From sequence record OR757453.1: a stretch of DNA of 64,000 nt, one strand, 5' to 3'. The position numbers and the translations under genes are program-made. This DNA comes from Escherichia phage BYEP01. The notes under the pieces are model-generated. The model searched no databases. It saw only the letters and a list, made by a program, of their open reading frames with translations, and was not told the origin of the DNA. Below, one piece after another: positions 9,476 through 46,151 of this stretch (its first letter is position 1; each line of letters starts with the position of its first letter).

Positions 9476-9508
9476 GTTTACTTCCTCGGTTAGTTGTGGT
9501 ATTATAAC
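9476..9508 (+). promoter_or_regulatory. early promoter
   Basis: GTTTAC ... GGTATTATAAC. Confidence 0.5.
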
Positions 9509-9532
9509 ACCATAGCTACTGAGGATAATAAA

Positions 9533-9664
9533 ATGAAAATTTATCGTGTTGAATCATCGTTTAGTATTCTTGATTATGAAGATGGTGTTGAACTTCTGAA
9601 TGTTGTTCATGCAGGTGATTTTAGTGTAGTACCTCGTAGTGCAGTGGTAGCTATTTTGAATTAA
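9533..9664 (+). CDS. hypothetical small protein
   Basis: 43 aa ORF with GAGGATAAT RBS. Confidence 0.3.
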   Translation: MKIYRVESSFSILDYEDGVELLNVVHAGDFSVVPRSAVVAILN

Positions 9665-11873: not shown

Positions 11874-11924
11874 GCTTTATGATTACCGGAGTATAATATT
11901 CCCGAAACCAAACGAGGATAAGTG

Positions 11925-13742
11925 ATGATTAAGAATGAAATTAAAATTCTGAGCGATATTGAACATATCAAAAAGCGTAGCGGCATGTACATTGGCTCTT
12001 CAGCTAATGAAATGCATGAGCGCTTTCTGTTTGGTAAATGGGAAAGTGTTCAGTATGTACCTGGTCTTGTTAAGCTTATTGATGAAATTATCGATAACTC
12101 AGTAGATGAAGGTATTCGTACTAAGTTTAAATTCGCAAATAAAATTAATGTTACCATTAAAAATAATCAGGTAACAGTTGAAGATAACGGTCGTGGTATT
12201 CCACAAGCGATGGTTAAAACACCTACCGGTGAAGAAATTCCTGGTCCTGTTGCTGCCTGGACTATTCCAAAAGCAGGTGGTAACTTTGGTGATGATAAAG
12301 AACGCGTCACCGGCGGTATGAATGGTGTTGGTTCTAGTTTAACTAACATTTTTTCTGTGATGTTTGTCGGTGAAACTGGCGACGGTCAAAATAATATTGT
12401 AGTTCGTTGTTCAAATGGCATGGAAAATAAATCATGGGAAACTATTCCTGGAAAATGGAAAGGAACTCGCGTTACTTTCATTCCTGATTTTATGTCATTT
12501 GAAACTAATGAGCTATCTCAGGTTTATCTTGACATTACACTGGATCGTCTCCAGACACTTGCAGTAGTTTATCCTGATATTCAATTTACCTTTAATGGTA
12601 AAAAGGTTCAGGGTAATTTTAAGAAATATGCACGTCAATATGATGAACATGCTATCGTTCAAGAACAAGAAAACTGTTCTATTGCGGTTGGTCGTTCGCC
12701 GGATGGTTTTCGTCAATTAACATACGTCAATAACATTCATACTAAGAATGGTGGCCATCACATTGACTGTGTTATGGATGATATTTGTGAAGACCTTATT
12801 CCACAAATCAAACGTAAATTTAAAATTGACGTAACTAAAGCACGTGTTAAAGAATGTTTGACTATCGTTATGTTTGTTCGTGATATGAAAAACATGCGAT
12901 TTGATTCTCAAACTAAAGAACGACTTACTTCTCCTTTTGGTGAAATTCGTAGTCATATTCAGCTTGATGCTAAAAAGATTTCACGTGCTATTTTAAATAA
13001 TGAAGCAATTTTAATGCCAATTATTGAAGCTGCCTTGGCTCGTAAATTGGCGGCAGAAAAAGCAGCAGAAACTAAAGCAGCTAAAAAGGCTTCTAAAGCT
13101 AAGGTTCATAAACATATTAAAGCGAATCTTTGCGGTAAAGATGCTGATACTACTCTTTTCTTGACTGAGGGTGATTCTGCTATCGGATATCTTATTGATG
13201 TTCGTGATAAAGAACTTCATGGTGGTTATCCATTGCGCGGTAAAGTTCTTAATAGCTGGGGTATGTCATATGCTGATATGCTTAAAAACAAAGAACTGTT
13301 TGATATTTGCGCAATCACTGGATTAGTTCTTGGCGAAAAGGCAGAGAATACGAACTATCGTAATATTGCAATTATGACTGACGCAGATCACGACGGTCTT
13401 GGAAGTATCTATCCGGCTTTGCTTGCTTTCTTTAGTAATTGGCCTGAATTGTTTGAACAAGGACGTATTCGCTTTGTTAAAACGCCTGTAATTATTGCAC
13501 AAATTGGCAAAACTCAAAAATGGTTTTATACTGTAGCTGAGTATGAAGAAGCTAAAGATGCTCTACCTAAGCATAGTATTCGATACATCAAGGGATTGGG
13601 CTCACTTCAGCGGGATGAATATAAAGAAATGATTCAAAACCCTGTGTACGACGTAGTTAAACTTCCTGAAAATTGGAAAGAACTATTTGAAATGCTCATG
13701 GGTAACGACCCTGAACTCCGTAAAGATTGGATGCTAGGATAA
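11925..13742 (+). CDS. 39: DNA topoisomerase II large subunit gp39, contiguous (no gene 60 split)
   Basis: 605 aa continuous ORF; GHKL ATPase N-terminus; Toprim-like region with DHDG; no internal stop or coding gap. Confidence 0.9.
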   Translation: MIKNEIKILSDIEHIKKRSGMYIGSSANEMHERFLFGKWESVQYVPGLVKLIDEIIDNSVDEGIRTKFKFANKINVTIKNNQVTVEDNGRGIPQAMVKTPTGEEIPGPVAAWTIPKAGGNFGDDKERVTGGMNGVGSSLTNIFSVMFVGETGDGQNNIVVRCSNGMENKSWETIPGKWKGTRVTFIPDFMSFETNELSQVYLDITLDRLQTLAVVYPDIQFTFNGKKVQGNFKKYARQYDEHAIVQEQENCSIAVGRSPDGFRQLTYVNNIHTKNGGHHIDCVMDDICEDLIPQIKRKFKIDVTKARVKECLTIVMFVRDMKNMRFDSQTKERLTSPFGEIRSHIQLDAKKISRAILNNEAILMPIIEAALARKLAAEKAAETKAAKKASKAKVHKHIKANLCGKDADTTLFLTEGDSAIGYLIDVRDKELHGGYPLRGKVLNSWGMSYADMLKNKELFDICAITGLVLGEKAENTNYRNIAIMTDADHDGLGSIYPALLAFFSNWPELFEQGRIRFVKTPVIIAQIGKTQKWFYTVAEYEEAKDALPKHSIRYIKGLGSLQRDEYKEMIQNPVYDVVKLPENWKELFEMLMGNDPELRKDWMLG

Positions 13743-17113: not shown

Positions 17114-18053
17114 ATGTACAATATTAAATGCCTGACCAAAAACGAACAAGCTGAAATTGTCAAACTGTATTCAAGTGGTAATTACACCCAACAGGAATTG
17201 GCTGATTGGCAAGGTGTATCGGTGGACACAATCCGTCGTGTTTTGAAAAATGCTGAAGAAGCTGAGCGCTCCAAAGTTACCATTAGCGGTGACATTACAG
17301 TTACAGTTAAGAGCGATGCAGCTATTGCTCCAGTTGCTAAATCTGACATTATTTGGAATGCATCTAAAAAATTCATTTCAATTACTGTTGACGGTGTAAC
17401 TTATAACGCAACTCCTAATACTCATTCAAACTTCCAAGAAATTCTTAATCTGCTTGTTGCAGATAAATTGGAAGAAGCGGCGCAAAAAATTAACGTTCGT
17501 CGCGCTGTTGAAAAATATATTTCCGGTGATGTTCGAATTGAAGGTGGAAGCTTGTTCTATCAAAATATTGAATTGCGGTCTGGTTTAGTTGATCGTATTC
17601 TCGATTCGATGGAAAAAGGTGAAAACTTTGAATTTTATTTTCCGTTCCTGGAAAATCTGTTAGAAAACCCAAGCCAAAAAGCGGTAATCTCGACTCTTTG
17701 ATTTCTTGGTAGCAAACGATATTGAAATTACAGAAGACGGTTACTTCTATGCTTGGAAAGTAGTTCGCAGTAATTACTTTGACTGCCATTCAAATACTTT
17801 TGATAACAGTCCTGGTAAAGTAGTTAAAATGCCACGTACTCGTGTGAATGACGATGATACACAAACTTGTTCTCGTGGTCTGCATGTGTGTTCTAAATCT
17901 TATATTCGTCACTTTGGCAGTTCAACCAGCCGAGTTGTAAAAGTTAAAGTACATCCTCGCGATGTAGTATCAATTCCGATTGATTACAACGATGCTAAAA
18001 TGCGTACCTGCCAATACGAAGTAGTTGAAGACGTTACTGAACAATTCAAATAA
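17114..18053 (+). pseudogene. rIIB: rIIB interrupted by an apparent +1 frameshift (ORFs 17114..17701 and 17706..18053)
   Basis: 195 aa and 115 aa ORFs in adjacent frames; joining the frames near 17686 gives exactly 312 aa, the T4 rIIB length. Confidence 0.7.
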
Positions 18054-18936: not shown

Positions 18937-18967
18937 GTTTACATACCACAAGGACTGTGGTACTATA
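18937..18967 (+). promoter_or_regulatory. early promoter
   Basis: GTTTAC ... TGTGGTACTAT. Confidence 0.55.
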
Positions 18968-19000
18968 CAACTATCAACTGATACAGATTTGGAGAATAAA

Positions 19001-22751: not shown

Positions 22752-22779
22752 GGGAGAGCCTCGGCTCTCCCTTTTTTAT
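22752..22779 (+). terminator. rho-independent terminator
   Basis: GGGAGAGCC-TCG-GCTCTCCC then TTTTTT. Confidence 0.8.
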
Positions 22780-22831
22780 TTCAAAAATTTTTTCACAAAA
22801 ACTACTGATACAGAATTACGGAGATTAGAAA

Positions 22832-35801: not shown

Positions 35802-35829
35802 GTTTACTTTAAGATTTGGATGGTATAAT
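35802..35829 (+). promoter_or_regulatory. early promoter for rnh
   Basis: GTTTAC ... TATAAT. Confidence 0.6.
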
Positions 35830-37054: not shown

Positions 37055-37370
37055 TATTCGTCCGGTCGATGAGACCGGTCTTTCAGAAAAAGAACTTTCA
37101 ATTAAGAAAGAAAAGGATGAAATAGCAAAACTTCTTGACCGCCAAGAAAATGGATTTATTATTGAAAAAATGGTAGAAGAGTTTGGAATGAGTTATCTTG
37201 AAGCTACAACAGCATTCTTAGAAGAAAATTCTATTCCTGAAACTCAATTTGCTAAATTTATTCCTTCAGGTATAATTGAAAAAATTCAGTCAGAAGCTAT
37301 TGACGAAAATCTTTTACGTCCTTCTGTTGTTCGTTGTGAAAAAACTAATACATTAGATTTTCTACTATGA
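37032..37370 (+). CDS. 33: late transcription co-activator gp33
   Basis: 112 aa from MTQFSLNDIRP. Confidence 0.7.
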   Translation: MTQFSLNDIRPVDETGLSEKELSIKKEKDEIAKLLDRQENGFIIEKMVEEFGMSYLEATTAFLEENSIPETQFAKFIPSGIIEKIQSEAIDENLLRPSVVRCEKTNTLDFLL

Positions 37371-38020
37371 TTAAACTCCGCATGCCTGCTGGTGGTGAAA
37401 GATACATTGATGGTAAATCAGTTTATAAATTATACTTAATGATAAAACAACATATGAATGGAAAGTATGATGTAATTAAGTATAATTGGTGCATGCGGGT
37501 GTCTGATGCCGCTTATCAAAAGCGAAGGGATAAGTATTTTTTCCAGAAGTTATCAGAAAAATATAAATTAAAGGAACTTGCTTTAATCTTTATAAGCAAT
37601 CTTGTTGCTAACCAAGATGCTTGGATTGGTGACATCTCTGACGCTGATGCACTTGTGTTTTATCGTGAATATATCGGACGCTTAAAGCAAATTAAATTTA
37701 AGTTTGAAGAAGATATTCGCAACATTTATTATTTTAGTAAAAAAGTTGAAGTTTCTGCTTTTAAAGAAATTTTTGAATATAATCCAAAAGTTCAATCAAG
37801 TTATATTTTTAAACTACTTCAATCGAATATAATTTCGTTTGAGACGTTTATCTTGCTTGATTCGTTTTTAAATATAATTGATAAACATGATGAACAGACT
37901 GATAATTTAGTCTGGAATAATTATTCTATAAAGTTAAAAGCTTATAGAAAAATTTTAAATATTGATTCACAGAAAGCTAAAAGTGTTTTTATTGAAACTG
38001 TGAAATCTTGTAAGTACTAA
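37367..38020 (+). CDS. 59: helicase loader gp59
   Basis: 217 aa. Confidence 0.8.
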   Translation: MIKLRMPAGGERYIDGKSVYKLYLMIKQHMNGKYDVIKYNWCMRVSDAAYQKRRDKYFFQKLSEKYKLKELALIFISNLVANQDAWIGDISDADALVFYREYIGRLKQIKFKFEEDIRNIYYFSKKVEVSAFKEIFEYNPKVQSSYIFKLLQSNIISFETFILLDSFLNIIDKHDEQTDNLVWNNYSIKLKAYRKILNIDSQKAKSVFIETVKSCKY

Positions 38021-38119
38021 TTGCTTATTATAAATAGATTATAATTATCTCACTGACCAGCTATGAGGTCATACATCGTCATAGCACCAACTGTTAATTA
38101 AATTAAAAAGGAAATAAAA
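38009..38119 (+). promoter_or_regulatory. gene 32 control region: MotA-box middle promoter, late promoter, translational operator pseudoknot and A/U-rich tract
   Basis: AATTGCTT box; TATAAATA at 38018; pseudoknot TGACCAGCTATGAGGTCATACATCGTCATAGCA; TTAATTAAATTAAAAAGG before the ATG. Confidence 0.8.
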
Positions 38120-39265
38120 ATGTTTAAACGTAAATCTACTGCTGAACTCGCTGCACAAATGGCTAAACTGGCTGGAAATAAAGGTGGTTTTTCTTCTGAA
38201 GATAAAGGCGAGTGGAAACTGAAACTCGATAATGCGGGTAACGGTCAAGCAGTAATTCGTTTTCTTCCGTCTAAAAATGATGAACAAGCACCATTCGCAC
38301 TTCTTGTAAATCACGGTTTCAAGAAAAATGGTAAATGGTATATTGAAACATGCTCATCTACCTACGGTGATTACGATTCTTGCCCAGTATGTCAGTACAT
38401 CAGTAAAAATGATTTGTATAACACTGACAATAAAGAGTACGGTCTTGTTAAACGTAAAACTTCTTACTGGGCTAACATTCTTGTAGTAAAAGACCCAGCT
38501 GCTCCAGAAAATGAAGGTAAAGTATTTAAATACCGTTTCGGTAAGAAAATCTGGGATAAAATCAATGCAATGATTGCAGTTGATGTTGAAATGGGTGAAA
38601 CTCCGGTTGATGTAACTTGTCCGTGGGAAGGTGCTAACTTTGTACTGAAAGTTAAACAGGTTTCTGGATTTAGTAACTACGATGAATCTAAATTCCTGAA
38701 TCAATCTGCGATTCCAAACATTGACGATAAATCTTTCCAGAAAGAACTGTTCGAACAAATGGTTGACCTTTCTGAAATGACTTCTAAAGATAAATTCAAA
38801 TCATTTGAAGAACTGAGCACTAAATTCGGTCAAGTCATGGGAACTGCTGTGATGGGCGGTGCCGCTGCAACTGCTGCTAAGAAAGCTGATAAAGTTGCTG
38901 ATGATTTGGATGCATTCAATGTTGATGACTTCAAAACAAAAACTGAAGATGATTTTATGAGCTCAAGCTCTGGCAGTTCATCTAGTGCTGATGACACGGA
39001 CCTGGCAATACTGCTGATAGTTAAAGAGGAAAATAATATGGCTAAAGTTGATATTGACATCGTTGATTTTGAATATATTGAAGAAATTATTCGTAATCGT
39101 TATCCTGAACTTAGTATCACAAGCGTGCAAGATTCTAAGTTTTGGAGTATTCAAATCGTTATTGAAGGTCCTCTTGAAGACCTCACCCGTTTTATGGCTA
39201 ATGAATATTGTGATGGCATGGATTCTGAAGACGCAGAATTTTACATGGGACTGATTGAACAATAA
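38120..39265 (+). CDS. 32: ssDNA-binding protein gp32; ORF has no stop at the expected end and continues in frame into the next ORF
   Basis: first 295 aa match T4 gp32; after SSADDTDL the frame reads [11 protein letters not shown] and continues through an RBS and ATG at 39038. Confidence 0.8.
39038..39265 (+). CDS. hypothetical acidic protein (frd.3 position), in frame with gene 32
   Basis: 75 aa from ATG preceded by AAAGAGGAAAAT. Confidence 0.45.
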
Positions 39266-39310
39266 TTATCAAGGGGCTATTAAGCCCCTATTAAAATGAG
39301 GAAAATCAAA

Positions 39311-39697
39311 ATGGAAATCGGCAAAAAATATGAGTTAAATCCACACCGTATTAAATCTTTCATTGATATTAGTTCATCAAATGCTAGTATGGTCGGCATC
39401 ATTCAAGAAAATGGTGGTTGGTTTGAAGTTAAATCAATATCAAGTTTAGATGGCTTTGATTATGTAACCGAAATCATTTGTGCTAACGGTGAAATCTATA
39501 ATGATGATGGTATGGGTGATGATTATTTTGAACTTAGTGAAGAAGAGTTTTATTGTTTCCGCGAATATAAAGAACCGACTTCTGAAGAGGATGAAGTTAA
39601 AGACAAGGTTTCTGGCGTAACAAAAATTCACTGCATTGTTGACGAAAACAATGTAGATGAAATCATTGAACTTTTGCGAAAAACTTTTAAGGCCTAA
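39311..39697 (+). CDS. hypothetical protein
   Basis: 128 aa from ATG after GAGGAAAATCAAA. Confidence 0.4.
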   Translation: MEIGKKYELNPHRIKSFIDISSSNASMVGIIQENGGWFEVKSISSLDGFDYVTEIICANGEIYNDDGMGDDYFELSEEEFYCFREYKEPTSEEDEVKDKVSGVTKIHCIVDENNVDEIIELLRKTFKA

Positions 39698-39698
39698 T

Positions 39699-39959
39699 AT
39701 GACTAAAGATGATTTCCTGGATGCGGTAGAAAAAGCTAGTGAGAAATTTGAAGTGATGGGTGTACGGGTCCATAAAGACAGAAATTACGGGCTCGATATT
39801 CAAACGTATTCGTTATGGCTTGTGGGTGAACACAGTCTTGTAACCAGTTTAGTTATGGGTGTCGATACCTATCCTCTATTGGTTAAGTTCAGAAGTATGG
39901 AAAAGGCTACTAAAGAAATGATTAAGCTTGGTAAGTGGCTCGATAAAATTCAAAAATAA
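39699..39959 (+). CDS. hypothetical protein
   Basis: 86 aa ORF. Confidence 0.35.
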   Translation: MTKDDFLDAVEKASEKFEVMGVRVHKDRNYGLDIQTYSLWLVGEHSLVTSLVMGVDTYPLLVKFRSMEKATKEMIKLGKWLDKIQK

Positions 39960-39961
39960 TT

Positions 39962-39991
39962 GTTTACAACAGGCTATGGTAGTGATACTAT
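39962..39991 (+). promoter_or_regulatory. early promoter with inverted repeat around -10
   Basis: GTTTAC; AGGCTAT / ATAGCCT arms. Confidence 0.5.
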
Positions 39992-40016
39992 AGCCTTATC
40001 AACTAAGGAGAATAAA

Positions 40017-40259
40017 ATGAGATTACAACGTCAGAGCATTAAAGATTCAGAAGTTAGAGGTAAATGGTATTTTAATATCATCGGTAAAGATTCTGAACTT
40101 GTTGAAAAAGCTGAACATCTTTTACGTGGTATGGGATGGGAAGATGAATGTGATGGATGCCCTCTTTATGAGGATGGAGAAAGCGCAGGATTCTGGATTT
40201 ACCATTCTGACGTTGAACAGTTTAAAGCTGATTGGAAAATTGTGAAAAGGTCTGTTTAA
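40017..40259 (+). CDS. hypothetical protein
   Basis: 80 aa with AAGGAGAATAAA RBS. Confidence 0.4.
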   Translation: MRLQRQSIKDSEVRGKWYFNIIGKDSELVEKAEHLLRGMGWEDECDGCPLYEDGESAGFWIYHSDVEQFKADWKIVKRSV

Positions 40260-40269
40260 GGAAAATAAT

Positions 40270-41298
<1,029 letters not shown>

Positions 41299-41847: not shown

Positions 41848-42110
41848 TAATTGAGGCCTGAGTATAAGGTGACTTATACTTGTAATCTATCTAAACGGGG
41901 GACCTCTCTAGTAGACAATCCCGTGCTAAATGTGTAGGACTTTGGTTCTACCTAAATGCCTAACGACTATCCCTTTAGGGAGTAGGGTCAAGTGACTCGA
42001 AACGATAGACATCTTGCTTCATCAAGATGGAGATATAGTCTGATCTGTATGGTGACATGCAGCTGGATATAATTCCGGGATAAGATTAACGACCTTATCT
42101 GAACATAATG
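41848..42110 (+). ncRNA. group I self-splicing intron in td, compact, no endonuclease ORF
   Basis: starts TAATTGAGGCCTGAGTATAAGG, contains GGGTCAAGTGACTCGAAACGATAGACA core, ends ACATAATG; 263 nt. Confidence 0.85.
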
Positions 42111-42709: not shown

Positions 42710-42989
42710 ATATAAATCCGACTTTGATGTTAATATTCACCGTGGTACATTTTGGGGAAATTACGTCGGTAAAGATGCTGGCAGCCGGGAGGCTGCCATT
42801 GAATTATTCAAAAAAGATTTTATACGTCGAATTAAATCCGGAGAAATAACTAAAGCACATTTAGAGCCTTTACGTGGAATGAGGCTAGGATGCACATGTA
42901 AACCAAAGCCGTGTCATGGTGATATAATAGCTCATATAGTTAACCGATTGTTTAAAGACGATTTTCAAGTTGAGGACTTATGCAATTAA
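42663..42989 (+). CDS. hypothetical protein, possibly DUF4326-like (nrdA.1 position)
   Basis: 108 aa; C-terminal [12 protein letters not shown] motif. Confidence 0.4.
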
Positions 42990-44413
42990 TTAATGTTATC
43001 AAAAGTAGTGGTGTTTCTCAGAGCTTTGACCCACAAAAAATTATTAAAGTTTTATCTTGGGCAGCTGAAGGAACATCTGTAGATCCTTATGAATTATATG
43101 AAAATATTAAATCATATCTCCGTGATGGAATGACCACTGATGACATTCAGACTATTGTCATTAAGGCTGCTGCGAATTCTATTTCGGTTGAAGAGCCTGA
43201 TTATCAATATGTAGCTGCACGCTGTTTAATGTTTGCTCTTCGTAAGCATGTTTACGGGCAATATGAACCACGTTCATTTATTGACCATATTTCTTACTGC
43301 GTAAATGAAGGTAAATATGACCCTGAATTGTTGTCAAAATATTCAGCAGAAGAAATTACATTTTTAGAATCAAAAATTAAGCACGAGCGGGATATGGAAT
43401 TTACTTATTCCGGGGCGATGCAATTAAAAGAAAAATATCTAGTTAAAGATAAAACCACTGGTCAAATTTATGAAACTCCACAGTTTGCATTTATGGCTAT
43501 TGGAATGGCACTGCATCAAGATGAACCTGTTGATAGATTAAAACATGTCATTCGTTTTTATGAAGCAGTATCTACTCGACAGATTTCATTGCCAACTCCT
43601 ATTATGGCTGGTTGTCGTACTCCAACTCGACAGTTTAGTTCATGCGTTGTTATTGAAGCAGGTGATTCGCTGAAGTCTATCAATAAGGCTTCTGCTTCAA
43701 TTGTTGAGTATATTTCTAAACGAGCTGGAATTGGCATTAACGTTGGTATGATTCGTGCCGAAGGTTCTAAGATTAGCACAGGTGAAGTGCGTCATACTGG
43801 TGTTATTCCTTTTTGGAAACATTTTCAGACTGCAGTTAAATCATGCTCACAGGGTGGAATTCGTGGCGGCGCTGCTACTGCTTATTATCCTATTTGGCAT
43901 TTGGAAGTTGAAAATCTTCTCGTTTTGAAAAATAACAAAGGCGTAGAAGAAAACCGTATTCGTCATATGGATTATGGCGTCCAGCTGAATGATTTGATGA
44001 TGGAACGTTTTGGAAAGAACGACTACATTACTTTGTTCAGTCCACATGAAATGGGTGGTGAGCTTTATTATTCTTATTTTAAAGACCAAGACCGTTTCCG
44101 TGAATTATATGAAGCCGCAGAAAAAGACCCTAATATTCGTAAAAAGCGTATTAAAGCCCGTGAACTGTTTGAATTGCTCATGACTGAACGATCAGGAACA
44201 GCAAGGATTTATGTACAGTTCATAGATAATACGAATAACTATACTCCGTTTATTCGTGAAAAGGCACCTATTCGTCAGAGCAACTTGTGTTGTGAAATTG
44301 CTATTCCAACAAATGATGTGAATAGTCAACAAACCCGTTTAATCAAAATTAAGAAGTCGGATGTAGCTAAGTTTTATGAAGCTAATCCTGGCGGTATAAT
44401 TCAAAGCAAATAA
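42980..44413 (+). CDS. nrdA: ribonucleotide reductase large subunit, N-terminal fragment
   Basis: ATP cone; active-site NLCCEIAIPT; ends 28 aa after PTNDVNS in non-NrdA sequence. Confidence 0.85.
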   Translation: MQLINVIKSSGVSQSFDPQKIIKVLSWAAEGTSVDPYELYENIKSYLRDGMTTDDIQTIVIKAAANSISVEEPDYQYVAARCLMFALRKHVYGQYEPRSFIDHISYCVNEGKYDPELLSKYSAEEITFLESKIKHERDMEFTYSGAMQLKEKYLVKDKTTGQIYETPQFAFMAIGMALHQDEPVDRLKHVIRFYEAVSTRQISLPTPIMAGCRTPTRQFSSCVVIEAGDSLKSINKASASIVEYISKRAGIGINVGMIRAEGSKISTGEVRHTGVIPFWKHFQTAVKSCSQGGIRGGAATAYYPIWHLEVENLLVLKNNKGVEENRIRHMDYGVQLNDLMMERFGKNDYITLFSPHEMGGELYYSYFKDQDRFRELYEAAEKDPNIRKKRIKARELFELLMTERSGTARIYVQFIDNTNNYTPFIREKAPIRQSNLCCEIAIPTNDVNSQQTRLIKIKKSDVAKFYEANPGGIIQSK

Positions 44414-45227
44414 AGTACACAGACCGTTAATAATAAATAATCCATAACAAGAGGAAAAGTTATGGATTATTCTAAAATTTACAATAACCTTATTTCTAAA
44501 GCTAAGAATAGAAAATTAGATTGCTATACCGAATCACACCATATTATACCTCTGTGTATTGGCGGTTCTGATACAAAAGAAAACCTGGTAGATTTGACAC
44601 CAGAAGAGCATTACATAGCTCATCAATTATTAGTAAAGATATATCCAGATAATCATAAATTGATATTTGCCGCTAATATGATGTGTGTTTATTCTGAAGA
44701 TAATATTGAACGAAAGAACACCAATAAACGTCATGGGTGGCTTAGAAGAAAATTGGCTATTTCTGTATCTGAAAATAATAAAGGCAAACCGGCTTGGAAC
44801 AAAGGTATTCCTATGTCTCCAGAAGTTAAATCTCGACTTCAAACATCTTGGGTGTTTACATTTCCGGATGGTCATGAGGAAATTCATCGAGGTCTTAACG
44901 AATTTTGTAAAGAGCATAATTTAAATGCATCTGCGATGTCAGCCGTTTGTAAAGGTAAACGGGCGCATCACAAAGGATTTAAGTGTAAGAAATTGGATAA
45001 GATTTCAGAGCTTGATAATTTAGTTTTCGTCAGTAAACCTCATCCAAAGGGATTAAAACCCCATAACTTAATTGCTGTAAAAATAAACGGTATAGAATAT
45101 CAATCAATACATCGAGCATCTAAAGCTTTAGGAATTACTAGAAAAAAGGTAGAAGAATTAAATGAATATTGATTATGAATTTGTAGATGAATTTTACGAA
45201 GATGATGAGTATACTACAATAGAAGTT
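44327..45227 (+). mobile_element. homing endonuclease insertion splitting nrdA
   Basis: about 900 nt between NrdA-homologous segments; contains the HNH ORF; no group I core motifs; stops in all continuing frames. Confidence 0.7.
44462..45172 (+). CDS. HNH homing endonuclease (MobE-like)
   Basis: 236 aa; HNH core ESHHIIPLCIGGSDTKENLVDLTPEEH; AGAGGA RBS. Confidence 0.75.
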   Translation: MDYSKIYNNLISKAKNRKLDCYTESHHIIPLCIGGSDTKENLVDLTPEEHYIAHQLLVKIYPDNHKLIFAANMMCVYSEDNIERKNTNKRHGWLRRKLAISVSENNKGKPAWNKGIPMSPEVKSRLQTSWVFTFPDGHEEIHRGLNEFCKEHNLNASAMSAVCKGKRAHHKGFKCKKLDKISELDNLVFVSKPHPKGLKPHNLIAVKINGIEYQSIHRASKALGITRKKVEELNEY

Positions 45228-46151
45228 ATTGAAAACAGGGGAGAAGTGGGGCTTTGTACCCTTAGCGCATTTGTGTTGGATAACTTCGATTGGCAAGACC
45301 AAGACAAAATTAATGAATTAGCAGAAGTTCAAGTTCGTGCTCTTGATAATCTTTTGGACTACCAAGGATATCCAGTTCCTGAAGCAGAAAAAGCTAAAAA
45401 GCGTCGAAACCTTGGCGTAGGTGTTACTAACTATGCAGCTTGGCTGGCAAGTAACTTTGCTTCTTATGAAGATGCTAACGATTTAACACATGAACTATTT
45501 GAGAGATTGCAGTATGGACTCATTAAAGCATCCATTAAGCTCGCCAAAGAAAAAGGACCTTGCGAATATTATTCAGACACTCGTTGGTCTCGAGGCGAAT
45601 TACCTATCGACTGGTACAATAAAAAGATTGACCAAATCGCAGCTCCAAAATACGTTTGTGATTGGGACGAACTTCGATCTGAACTCAAACAGCATGGAAT
45701 TCGAAATTCTACTTTATCCGCGTTGATGCCGTGTGAATCATCCAGTCAGGTATCTAACAGTACAAACGGTATCGAGCCTCCACGTGGACCAGTCTCTGTT
45801 AAAGAATCAAAAGAGGGTTCCTTTAATCAAGTCGTGCCCAATATTGAGCATAACATAGACCTCTATGATTATACGTGGAAATTAGCTAAGAAAGGTAATA
45901 AACCTTATCTTACGCAGGTAGCTATTATGCTGAAATGGGTATGTCAATCAGCTTCAGCGAATACATATTATGACCCGCAGATTTTTCCAAAAGGAAAGGT
46001 TCCAATGTCTGTAATGATTGATGACATGCTATACGGATGGTATTATGGCATTAAAAACTTCTATTATCATAATACCCGTGATGGTTCTGGTACTGATGAT
46101 TATGAAATAGAAACTCCCAAAGCTGAAGATTGTTCATCCTGTAAATTATGA
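45162..46151 (+). CDS. nrdA: ribonucleotide reductase large subunit, C-terminal fragment
   Basis: aligns with E. coli NrdA from GEVGLCTLSAF to C-terminal CSSCKL; own ATG overlaps the HNH ORF end. Confidence 0.85.
   Translation: MNIDYEFVDEFYEDDEYTTIEVIENRGEVGLCTLSAFVLDNFDWQDQDKINELAEVQVRALDNLLDYQGYPVPEAEKAKKRRNLGVGVTNYAAWLASNFASYEDANDLTHELFERLQYGLIKASIKLAKEKGPCEYYSDTRWSRGELPIDWYNKKIDQIAAPKYVCDWDELRSELKQHGIRNSTLSALMPCESSSQVSNSTNGIEPPRGPVSVKESKEGSFNQVVPNIEHNIDLYDYTWKLAKKGNKPYLTQVAIMLKWVCQSASANTYYDPQIFPKGKVPMSVMIDDMLYGWYYGIKNFYYHNTRDGSGTDDYEIETPKAEDCSSCKL

Follow-up and report, generated by a model that had tools for sequence, protein, structure and literature searches.

The DNA analysed here is a 64,000-nucleotide (nt) stretch of Escherichia phage BYEP01 (sequence record OR757453.1), called the window below, in which the genes for the single-stranded DNA (ssDNA)-binding protein gp32 and for the small protein Frd.3 are joined into one reading frame. 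The locus is a T4-type cluster, 59-32-frd.3-frd.2, on the + strand, and the listing of open reading frames (ORFs) gives a single ORF at 38120..39265 (+), whose 381 amino acids (aa) consist of gp32 residues 1–295, an 11-aa linker and the 75 aa of Frd.3. Two Pfam domains lie within it, gp32 (PF08804, E=6.1e-66, residues 40–240, profile 1–208/208) and Phage_FRD3 (PF05798, E=1e-38, residues 307–381, profile 1–75/75). Between gp32 codon 295, a CTG (Leu) at 39002–39004, and the frd.3 ATG at 39038–39040, the sequence holds no in-frame stop codon; the stops close to the junction (TGA and TAG in CTGATAG, TAA in GTTAAA) belong to the other two frames and are ordinary sequence of the untranslated region (UTR). 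The initial annotation, which described gene 32 as lacking its stop and running in frame into the next ORF at 38996–39040, was thus borne out, and its coordinates correctly enclose the junction. The parts of the fused ORF are as follows.

38120..39004, + strand: gp32-derived part, codons 1–295 (T4 residues 1–294), without DDLLNDL
39003..39006, + strand: deletion junction ...GGACCT[GG]CAATAC, placed by alignments; BLAST blocks overlap at 39004–39005
39005..39037, + strand: 11-aa linker, the old frd.3 5′ UTR translated in frame; the identical UTR is untranslated in relatives
39038..39265, + strand: frd.3 coding sequence, intact, 75 aa, 8.8 kDa (PF05798 1–75/75, E=8e-40)

A single deletion accounts for the whole difference between the window and its relatives. 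We aligned the 3′ end of gene 32 with those of LH2, G10400 and eight loci carrying the window's exact gp59 protein, and found one contiguous gap, of 137 nt relative to LH2 and 135–139 nt relative to the other relatives; the earlier statement that no single indel explains the difference was therefore mistaken. When a 601-nt junction query was used (494 of 549 phage records had ≥80% query coverage), all phage records among the matches listed aligned in two pieces, with the record covering ~135–140 nt more than the query does. At the junction, the window has ...GACACGGACCT[GG]CAATACTG..., and the GG at 39004–39005 is a 2-nt microhomology, which leaves the breakpoint ambiguous over three positions. 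In relatives, the missing block begins with GAT GAC CTT TTG AAT GAC CTT TAA, encoding DDLLNDL and the stop, continues with an A/T-rich spacer, a hairpin GGGGACC(C/T)..GGTCCCC, a T-run and ATTTCAAAAATTTTTTCACAAAAC, and ends with an early promoter, GTTTACA-N17-TACTAT with a TG extension, followed by ACAACTATC. The normal end of gene 32 is ...GGACCTGGATGACCTTTTGAATGACCTTTAA, with the hairpin and promoter beyond it, and the relatives' proteins finish in ...ADDTDLDDLLNDL before the stop, in agreement with the T4 terminus DDLLNDL given in the initial annotation. What was deleted is thus 24 nt of coding sequence plus a terminator–promoter cassette of the PeSL (promoter-early stem-loop) kind, and this segment has not been relocated anywhere in the window. 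The spacer of the frd.3 promoter varies among phages, with invariant −35 and −10 elements. As a separate observation, the gene 32 terminator hairpin (L001 1852–1870 compared with L005–L012) occurs as either of two sequences, each the exact reverse complement of the other, GGGGACCTCTAGGGTCCCC in LH2 and G10400 and GGGGACCCTAGAGGTCCCC in the other relatives, constituting a hairpin-flip polymorphism.

The sequence on either side of the junction is ordinary. Its flanks are 99.3% identical to LH2, and comparison with 13 relatives revealed one window-unique nucleotide, at 38419, in the 984 nt of leader plus gene 32. These flanks point to one recent event, or to one error, rather than to the diverged junction that had been proposed. 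The window gp32 is 97–98% identical to LH2 and GRNsp7-type gp32, and its Frd.3 is 100% identical to that of LH2. The gp32 substitutions H82Y and E204K were considered as unusual features and rejected, as both are common to close relatives at the DNA level and are ordinary alleles; likewise, a 2-nt indel at 35823 is a natural polymorphism common to L007 and L009. The adjoining features are listed here.

37367..38020, + strand: gene 59 (helicase loader), intact upstream neighbour, 217 aa, Pfam T4_Gp59_N and T4_Gp59_C
38021..38119, + strand: gene 32 5′ leader (translational operator region), unchanged, with no window-unique nucleotide against 13 relatives
39272..39289, + strand: 7-bp hairpin AGGGGCT-ATTA-AGCCCCT after frd.3, without a T-run, found by reading the sequence
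39311..39697, + strand (ORF 39296..39697): frd.2, intact downstream neighbour, Pfam FRD2, E=7e-39

The window's exact gp59 protein is recorded in 1180 blocks of the collection, and no Rfam family matched between 37300 and 40300. In the 20 intact relatives for which the junction was read (L001, L002, L005–L012, L029, L030 and the eight gp59 loci), gene 32 and frd.3 are separate. Frd.3 is normally encoded by a cistron of its own, of 75–83 aa, which lies behind the gene 32 terminator and has its own early promoter, and relatives have the upstream stop, the terminator and the promoter. This arrangement is absent from the window. A scan of 37900..40400 gave no terminator-like site, whereas LH2 has one strong site at the deleted position, the hairpin and T-run of the missing block, which is the sole site of this type in that stretch; gene 32 transcripts in the window should therefore read through. 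No promoter-like site is left upstream of frd.3 in the window. The gene retains its own Shine–Dalgarno sequence, GAGG at 39026–39029, which now lies inside the linker.

The lost coding sequence specifies the most conserved element of the gp32 tail. The motif [LIV]-D-x-[LI]-L-x-x-[LMFI] forms the C-terminus of 115 of 117 gp32 homologues, at identities down to ~58%; the two homologues that lack it are 221 and 262 aa long, and one of these carries the label 'partial' at its source. The Ser/Asp-rich stretch that precedes the motif varies in length and sequence. Rather than a free C-terminus with this motif in a protein of ~290–308 aa, the window encodes 381 aa, in which the gp32 part retains just the first Leu of the terminal motif and reads ...DTDL before the linker. 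This part also retains the N-terminal cooperativity domain, including the basic segment MFKRKST..., the core and the partner-binding helix, with the 23-residue Dda-binding segment present at residue 249. The Dda-binding helix has been mapped to T4 residues 248–270, and acidic residues 273–301 have been proposed to serve mainly in intramolecular regulation of ssDNA binding (PMC11551737); the extreme tip of gp32 was accordingly dropped as a candidate for the mapped Dda-binding site. Thus, the earlier remark that the acidic C-terminus mediates gp32 interactions applies in part, in that the extreme tail motif is gone and the mapped helix is retained.

Related lesions of the T4 tail have been described. 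In the T4 mutant strain deltaPR201 (Hurley et al., 1993, as reported in PMC5892887), a 15-nt in-frame deletion removes residues T292-D-L-D-D296. By alignment, the deleted bases correspond to ACGGACCTGGATGAC, which lies between GATGAC repeats, and the left breakpoint of the window falls inside them. Both are lesions of the C-terminal tail at the same site that leave the core and helix 248–270 intact, but deltaPR201 keeps LLNDL, the stop, the terminator and the promoter, whereas the window loses the terminal motif together with the cassette and gains an 86-aa extension. The window allele is also not of the deltaPR201 type in detail, as it keeps the codons up to L295 (T4 L294) and loses ~137 nt downstream. 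The variant gp32(1-295), studied as purified protein only, lacks nearly the same residues as the window gp32, which keeps residues 1–294 in T4 numbering. Its ssDNA binding constant is ~3-fold that of the wild type and ~15-fold below that of the tail-less *I form (Pant et al., 2018, PMC5892887), and its affinity for double-stranded DNA (dsDNA) is 1.5–2-fold that of the wild type (PMC5892887). The initial annotation held that a fusion would matter; gp32(1-295) and deltaPR201 show only intermediate biochemical effects (PMC5892887), and the remark is right only in part.

The deleted block, as it stands in relatives, has the PeSL layout of a stem-loop, an A/T-rich tract and TTTACW-N17-TAYWAT, with several dispersed copies. 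This promoter pattern is the T4/PST consensus, and PeSLs have been reported near insertions and deletions (PMC4122927). The block shares its layout and dispersal with the published elements (Arbiol et al., 2010, PMC2839356; Comeau et al., 2014, PMC4122927), and the loss of an entire PeSL, as seen here, has been invoked for one locus (PMC4122927). The published events are recombinations between two cassettes that excise or swap the intervening genes in hyperplastic regions; unlike these events, the window has lost a lone cassette and, along with it, a portion of an essential core gene, at a site with only 2 nt of microhomology. The same terminator–promoter arrangement occurs after motA.1, upstream of motA, and a more diverged copy occurs after denB. 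In the wild-type stretches examined, the near-identical shared segment has just two copies, ~15 kb apart. Within the 0–2 nt of ambiguity created by the GG, the right breakpoint at gene 32 coincides with the 3′ edge of the sequence conserved between these copies (...ACAACTATC). The other two cassette sites in the window are these.

22777..22805, + strand: second cassette lesion, upstream of motA, junction at ~22800, 42 nt gone relative to relatives
18937..18971, + strand: third, more diverged cassette copy after denB, intact, an internal control

In the wild-type phages PinkRuby, ECO78 and SH-2, the motA-type promoter spacer CAAAGCATACTG is also present at the gene 32 cassette, and the two cassettes of this type are then identical over an estimated ~85 nt. 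Phages phiC600P9, CrRp10, GEP001, B1.1 and TB004 appear to be derived from genomes of that kind.

Searches of public genomes place the window within a wider class. Its fusion protein is not on record by exact-protein look-up, which likewise returned no record for frd.2, gp34, gp37 or rIIA, and a comparison with 5.8 billion proteins gave one other full-length fusion, the 392-aa protein of phiC600P9. A translated search with a junction-spanning peptide, complemented by four further genomes found through the motA cassette, identified at least 12 other public Tequatrovirus genomes with deletions at the gene 32–frd.3 junction. The count of 86 records at ≥80% coverage given by translated search was rejected as the size of the class, since most of these are wild-type junctions of ~492 nt bridged by gapped alignment. 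A gapped pattern for any shortened junction had 0 matches in IMG/VR, and its 10 matches in metagenomes and genomes were all chance hits to unrelated sequence; IMG/VR is in any case unsuited as a denominator, because it held only one wild-type contig and ZN18. The junctions and the proteins that they encode are listed below, with a slash at each join.

Window: GGACCT[GG]/CAATAC; 381 aa, fused
phiC600P9 (MZ681930): GGACCT/CAAAGCATACTG; 392 aa, fused
CrRp10 (MG775043), GEP001 (PV173775) and vB_Eco-B1.1 (ON871820): GGACC/CCAAAGC; 392 aa, fused
IME537 (MT179807): GGACC/CATTTTTTTTTTTCAC; 402 aa, fused
ZN18: GGACCT/ATTCCAAAAAA; 301 aa, ending ...DLFQKIFS
Sfk20: GGACCT/ACAACAAGG; 311 aa
EO1: GGACCT/CCTTGTCC; 310 aa
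11B_SA_NWU: GGACCT/CCCTGTTC; 310 aa
TB004: GGACC/ACCAAAGC; 311 aa
SP21535: GGACCT/CTCTGTTC; 311 aa
ZCEC15 (PQ871103.1): larger deletion with another left breakpoint; 277 aa, ...KKADKVADD/FATRTMVLYNYRQYC and stop

None of the 12 retains DDLLNDL, the stop codon or the terminator of gene 32. The left breakpoint, ...GATGACACGGACC^T (GGACC^T), is within 1–3 nt of that in the window in 11 of the 12, with ZCEC15 as the exception, and it falls within coding sequence that is unique, ~54 nt before the hairpin. The members vary in their right breakpoints and promoter-spacer alleles, which argues that most of the deletions are independent events. The other members keep the extended −10 element (TGGTACTAT) and ~30 nt of the cassette, with the right breakpoint just past the −35 element, whereas only in the window does the deletion extend as far as the 3′ edge of the cassette, leaving frd.3 without a promoter of its own. 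Members come from France, China, India, South Africa, Malaysia, Poland and elsewhere, and their recorded hosts include Citrobacter, Yersinia, Shigella and E. coli O157/O177. The class is not described in the literature searched, in which no paper names both Frd.3 and gp32. The window is thus a unique, more extensive junction within a recurrent class that is already present in public records and reference families. The earlier idea that relatives with the same junction might still make gp32 of normal size by alternative termination fared poorly, because relatives with similar junctions encode altered or fused proteins. An in-frame fusion occurs in six of the 13 phages, window included, three of which have one common junction, and the other seven proteins end in unrelated short tails; as 6/13 is near the one-in-three expectation of chance, the fusion itself is probably incidental, and what the class shares is the loss of the gp32 tail and terminator. 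The larger ZCEC15 deletion reaches the Dda-binding helix as mapped and, if real, would do much more damage than the allele in the window.

Fused proteins have also entered reference collections. The PHROGs v4 family phrog_1764 has 391 columns and matches the whole fusion (831 bits), with Frd.3 occupying columns 317–391, and in F26 the 75-aa Frd.3 (L030 28767..28994, F26_0239) is labelled 'ssDNA-binding protein'. This family and this label suggest that fused records have contaminated a reference family and downstream annotation.

The cassette upstream of motA carries a second lesion. In the window, this 42-nt deletion removes ACGGTTTACAACCAAAGCATACTGTGGTACTATACAACTATC, which comprises the complete early promoter (−35 to +1, ...ACAACTATC), and keeps the hairpin, T-run and A/T tract; as in the gene 32 deletion, the right breakpoint is the 3′ edge of the cassette. 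Among the matches listed, no phage record has this deletion, as all 12 rows align in two pieces with 42–43 extra nt, nine of them at 100% identity. Other class members have lost the T-run, A/T tract and −35 element of the motA cassette, compared with −35 to +1 in the window. The junction reads GGCTCTCC/AAAGC in ZN18, Sfk20 and phiC600P9; an identical 85-nt gap is present in CrRp10, which aligns at 98.1% with the full length of the short-form junction query; IME537 and TB004 have variant motA junctions; and the motA cassette is intact in EO1 and 11B_SA_NWU. With a query specific to this junction, the short motA form was detected in at least nine distinct phages among ~431 matching records, and phiC600P9, which this query missed because of a mismatch, is the tenth (CrRp10 L040, ZN18 L016, Sfk20 L042, IME537 L041, TB004 L045, phiC600P9 L046, SP21535, GEP001, vB_Eco-B1.1 and ZCEC15). 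All ten have an aberrant gene 32 end, although the loci are 15 kb apart and two independent variants at ~2% each would be expected to coincide in ~0.15 genomes. The third cassette is intact in every variant phage in which it was found. Something therefore acts on both cassette copies within a genome, and the pattern suggests a genome-level cause, either biological or technical. If the cause is biological, the shared sequence could be the target of a nuclease or defence, the second event could be compensatory, or truncated gp32 could act as a mutator; a technical cause could be a repeat- or hairpin-related problem of assembly or consensus.

We consider that the window most probably carries a genuine single deletion in phage DNA with an incidental in-frame fusion, and put the probability of this reading at about 0.5. 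Its origin would lie in illegitimate or slippage-type recombination, at a structured site that is prone to deletion. In the wild-type region, a predicted ssDNA fold pairs gene 32 GGAC/GGATG with CATCC/GTCC at the −35/spacer (z=−3.4, for one spacer allele); this modelled fold would enclose the terminator and juxtapose the recurrent endpoints, which fits structure-mediated slippage. A fusion protein of 42.7 kDa (calculated), gp32(1-295)-linker-Frd.3, would be made instead of the 33.5-kDa wild-type-like gp32, and native Frd.3 (8.8 kDa) could still be translated separately, as its own Shine–Dalgarno sequence and ATG are retained. With neither the terminator between the genes nor the frd.3 promoter left, transcription of frd.3, frd.2 and the downstream genes would depend on read-through from gene 32 promoters. 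The gp32 part should keep cooperative ssDNA binding and the partner-binding helix and would lose three acidic residues and the LDDLLxxL motif; by analogy with gp32(1-295), moderately higher affinity for ssDNA and dsDNA and a partly relieved kinetic block might be expected, without loss of function. The fusion would be incidental rather than selected. This reading is favoured because a single contiguous gap between ordinary flanks explains everything, because the class is recurrent with differing right breakpoints and a left breakpoint in unique coding sequence, and because the GGACC^T of 11 records lies within the 15-nt deltaPR201 deletion. The existence of the deltaPR201 strain, the intermediate defects of gp32(1-295) and the presence of the Dda-binding helix suggest, by precedent, that loss of the tail may be tolerated.

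Several observations weigh against a genuine deletion, and several of them also speak for the alternative that the junction is an assembly or consensus artefact, in which case the true junction is normal, the cassette was dropped or mis-joined at both gene 32 and motA, and no 381-aa ORF exists. We regard an artefact as a serious possibility, although one that falls short of an even chance. The deletion is known here from assembled sequence, not from reads, and its exact junction is found nowhere else, being absent from 480 matching phage records and, by a 24-nt exact search, from IMG/VR, JGI metagenomes and GTDB genomes. Loss of the terminal motif of an essential protein should be costly, given that the motif is nearly invariant. 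Three further lesions (the motA 42-nt deletion, a +1 insertion in rIIB and a ~907-nt deletion), whose exact forms are unmatched among the matches listed, are unusual for a clean wild isolate. Short forms were also not seen in the T4, T2 and RB-series reference records among the matches listed and occur in recent isolate records. The damaged segments, moreover, are the two copies of a near-identical, A/T-rich and hairpin-bearing repeat, a signature of repeat assembly that could arise in assembly, scaffolding, polishing or reference-guided consensus; the near-perfect coincidence of the motA and gene 32 lesions and the intact state of the more diverged third copy would follow from such an error. 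The cassette piece kept at most junctions is ~29–32 nt, which would be near k−1 for the common k-mer sizes k=31–33, and the motA locus of the window keeps approximately the first 31 nt of the repeat. A length of 29–32 nt fits a position just after the −35 hexamer equally well, however, and we know of no concrete way in which an assembler would set the left breakpoint within the same 1–3 nt (GGACC^T) in 11 records from different laboratories. In EO1 and 11B_SA_NWU, gene 32 carries the deletion and the motA cassette is intact, the two junctions of the window are unlike all others, the remaining window and the 21-kb locus of phiC600P9 are otherwise clean, and the site is independently known for an in vivo deletion, deltaPR201 (PMC5892887). 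Mutation and local sequence error, both proposed in the initial annotation, remain live alternatives.

The coincidence of the two lesions can also be read biologically. We think it unlikely, on balance, that the deletions are real and recurrent because a site-specific process or directed selection repeatedly removes both cassette copies and LDDLLxxL; under this joint reading, and at the same low likelihood, the cause might be a nuclease or defence that acts on cassette DNA or senses the gp32 tail, or a truncated tail that destabilises hairpin-bearing cassettes. Selection proper, as sequence-directed pressure on the shared cassette segment or on the gp32 tail, seems to us improbable. Its agents could be a nuclease or homing endonuclease, or a host defence that targets this DNA or senses the C-terminus of gp32; early transcription might instead be adapting to hosts other than K-12, and in one variant gp32 is truncated first and the truncation then promotes or requires the second deletion. 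Near-perfect co-occurrence 15 kb apart with junctions that differ by phage, the asymmetry by which the gene 32 deletion stands alone in two phages and the motA deletion in none, the diversity of hosts in the class and the altered DNA binding of gp32(1-295) (PMC5892887) all speak for selection. Such a nuclease or defence is purely hypothetical, however, an artefact explains the same pattern, and the deletions in the window differ in form from those of the class by also removing the −10 and +1 region. Still more doubtful, to the point of being very improbable, is a functional, evolved two-domain protein, or a gp32 of normal size produced by recoding or alternative termination. Six records annotate or encode an in-frame gp32–Frd.3 protein and the 391-column PHROGs family matches the whole of it, but the near-chance proportion of in-frame junctions, three of them a single junction, and the unrelated short tails of the other seven phages argue against a selected fusion, as do the linker, which is translated 5′ UTR that differs between phages, and the separate genes of all 20 intact relatives. 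Recoding would have no in-frame stop to read through, and relatives have TAA and then TAG and separate genes. As a known parallel, the T4 rII deletion r1589 reportedly joins rIIA to rIIB; there, the stop and intergenic region are said to be deleted so that two cistrons yield one polypeptide with a functional downstream part. The genes differ from those in the window, where the upstream partner is essential.

If the deletions are real, the phage in the window and at least 12 other isolates multiply although they lack the best-conserved element of the gp32 tail, some isolates carry 86–101 extra residues on gp32, and these natural variants would make the in vivo role of the terminal motif testable; there would then be a deletion hotspot at the deltaPR201 site with a linked change at the second cassette copy upstream of motA. 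Were removal of both copies driven by a directed process, the motif would be dispensable or counter-selected on some hosts and two distant cassettes would evolve in concert. If the junctions are artefacts, the error is reproducible and already in RefSeq exemplar genomes (CrRp10, IME537 and ZN18), has seeded the PHROG family phrog_1764 of the fused protein, probably lies behind the mis-annotation of Frd.3 as 'ssDNA-binding protein' in F26, and is relevant to curators and assemblers of T4-like genomes. In either case, a 381-aa 'SSB' should not be accepted at face value.

Other differences occur elsewhere in the window. The rIIB gene, of 312 aa in relatives, is split into ORFs at 17114..17701 and 17706..18053 by an extra A at 17686 (GCGGTAATCTCG versus GCGGTATCTCG), which is not in a long homopolymer; none of 487 matching records exceeded 97.5% identity, and those listed cover 81 bases of the query with 80 of the record. 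Among ORFs comparable with LH2, only rIIB is split, which argues that the window is not a generally noisy assembly. Mutants in rII are readily picked up in plaque isolation. The motA gene was originally identified by selection for increased rIIA synthesis (PMC2988021); that 'sip' suppressors of rII map to motA is an idea which this review does not confirm. As a matter of speculation, the rII and motA lesions could form a biologically coherent combination. A deletion of ~907 nt relative to LH2 lies at 9577–9584 between 8-bp direct repeats (TGAAGATG) and joins the first 34 codons of the post-dexA ORF to the last 28 of a motB-like gene, giving a 56-aa ORF at 9494..9664; this locus is naturally variable, with other short forms in CrRp10, F13076 and others, and the exact junction is in no listed record. 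A further gene, nrdA, is split (42980..44413 and 45162..46151) by an insert of ~750–930 nt, which is probably a natural mobile element, since F26 has an annotated HNH endonuclease at the corresponding position, between its two parts of nrdA. Ordinary mosaic differences account for td, which at 41941 is without the ~754-nt intron/I-TevI insert carried by LH2, sutha and F26, and for gene 39 (11922..13742), which is a single 606-aa ORF in the window and is split by an HNH endonuclease gene in LH2.

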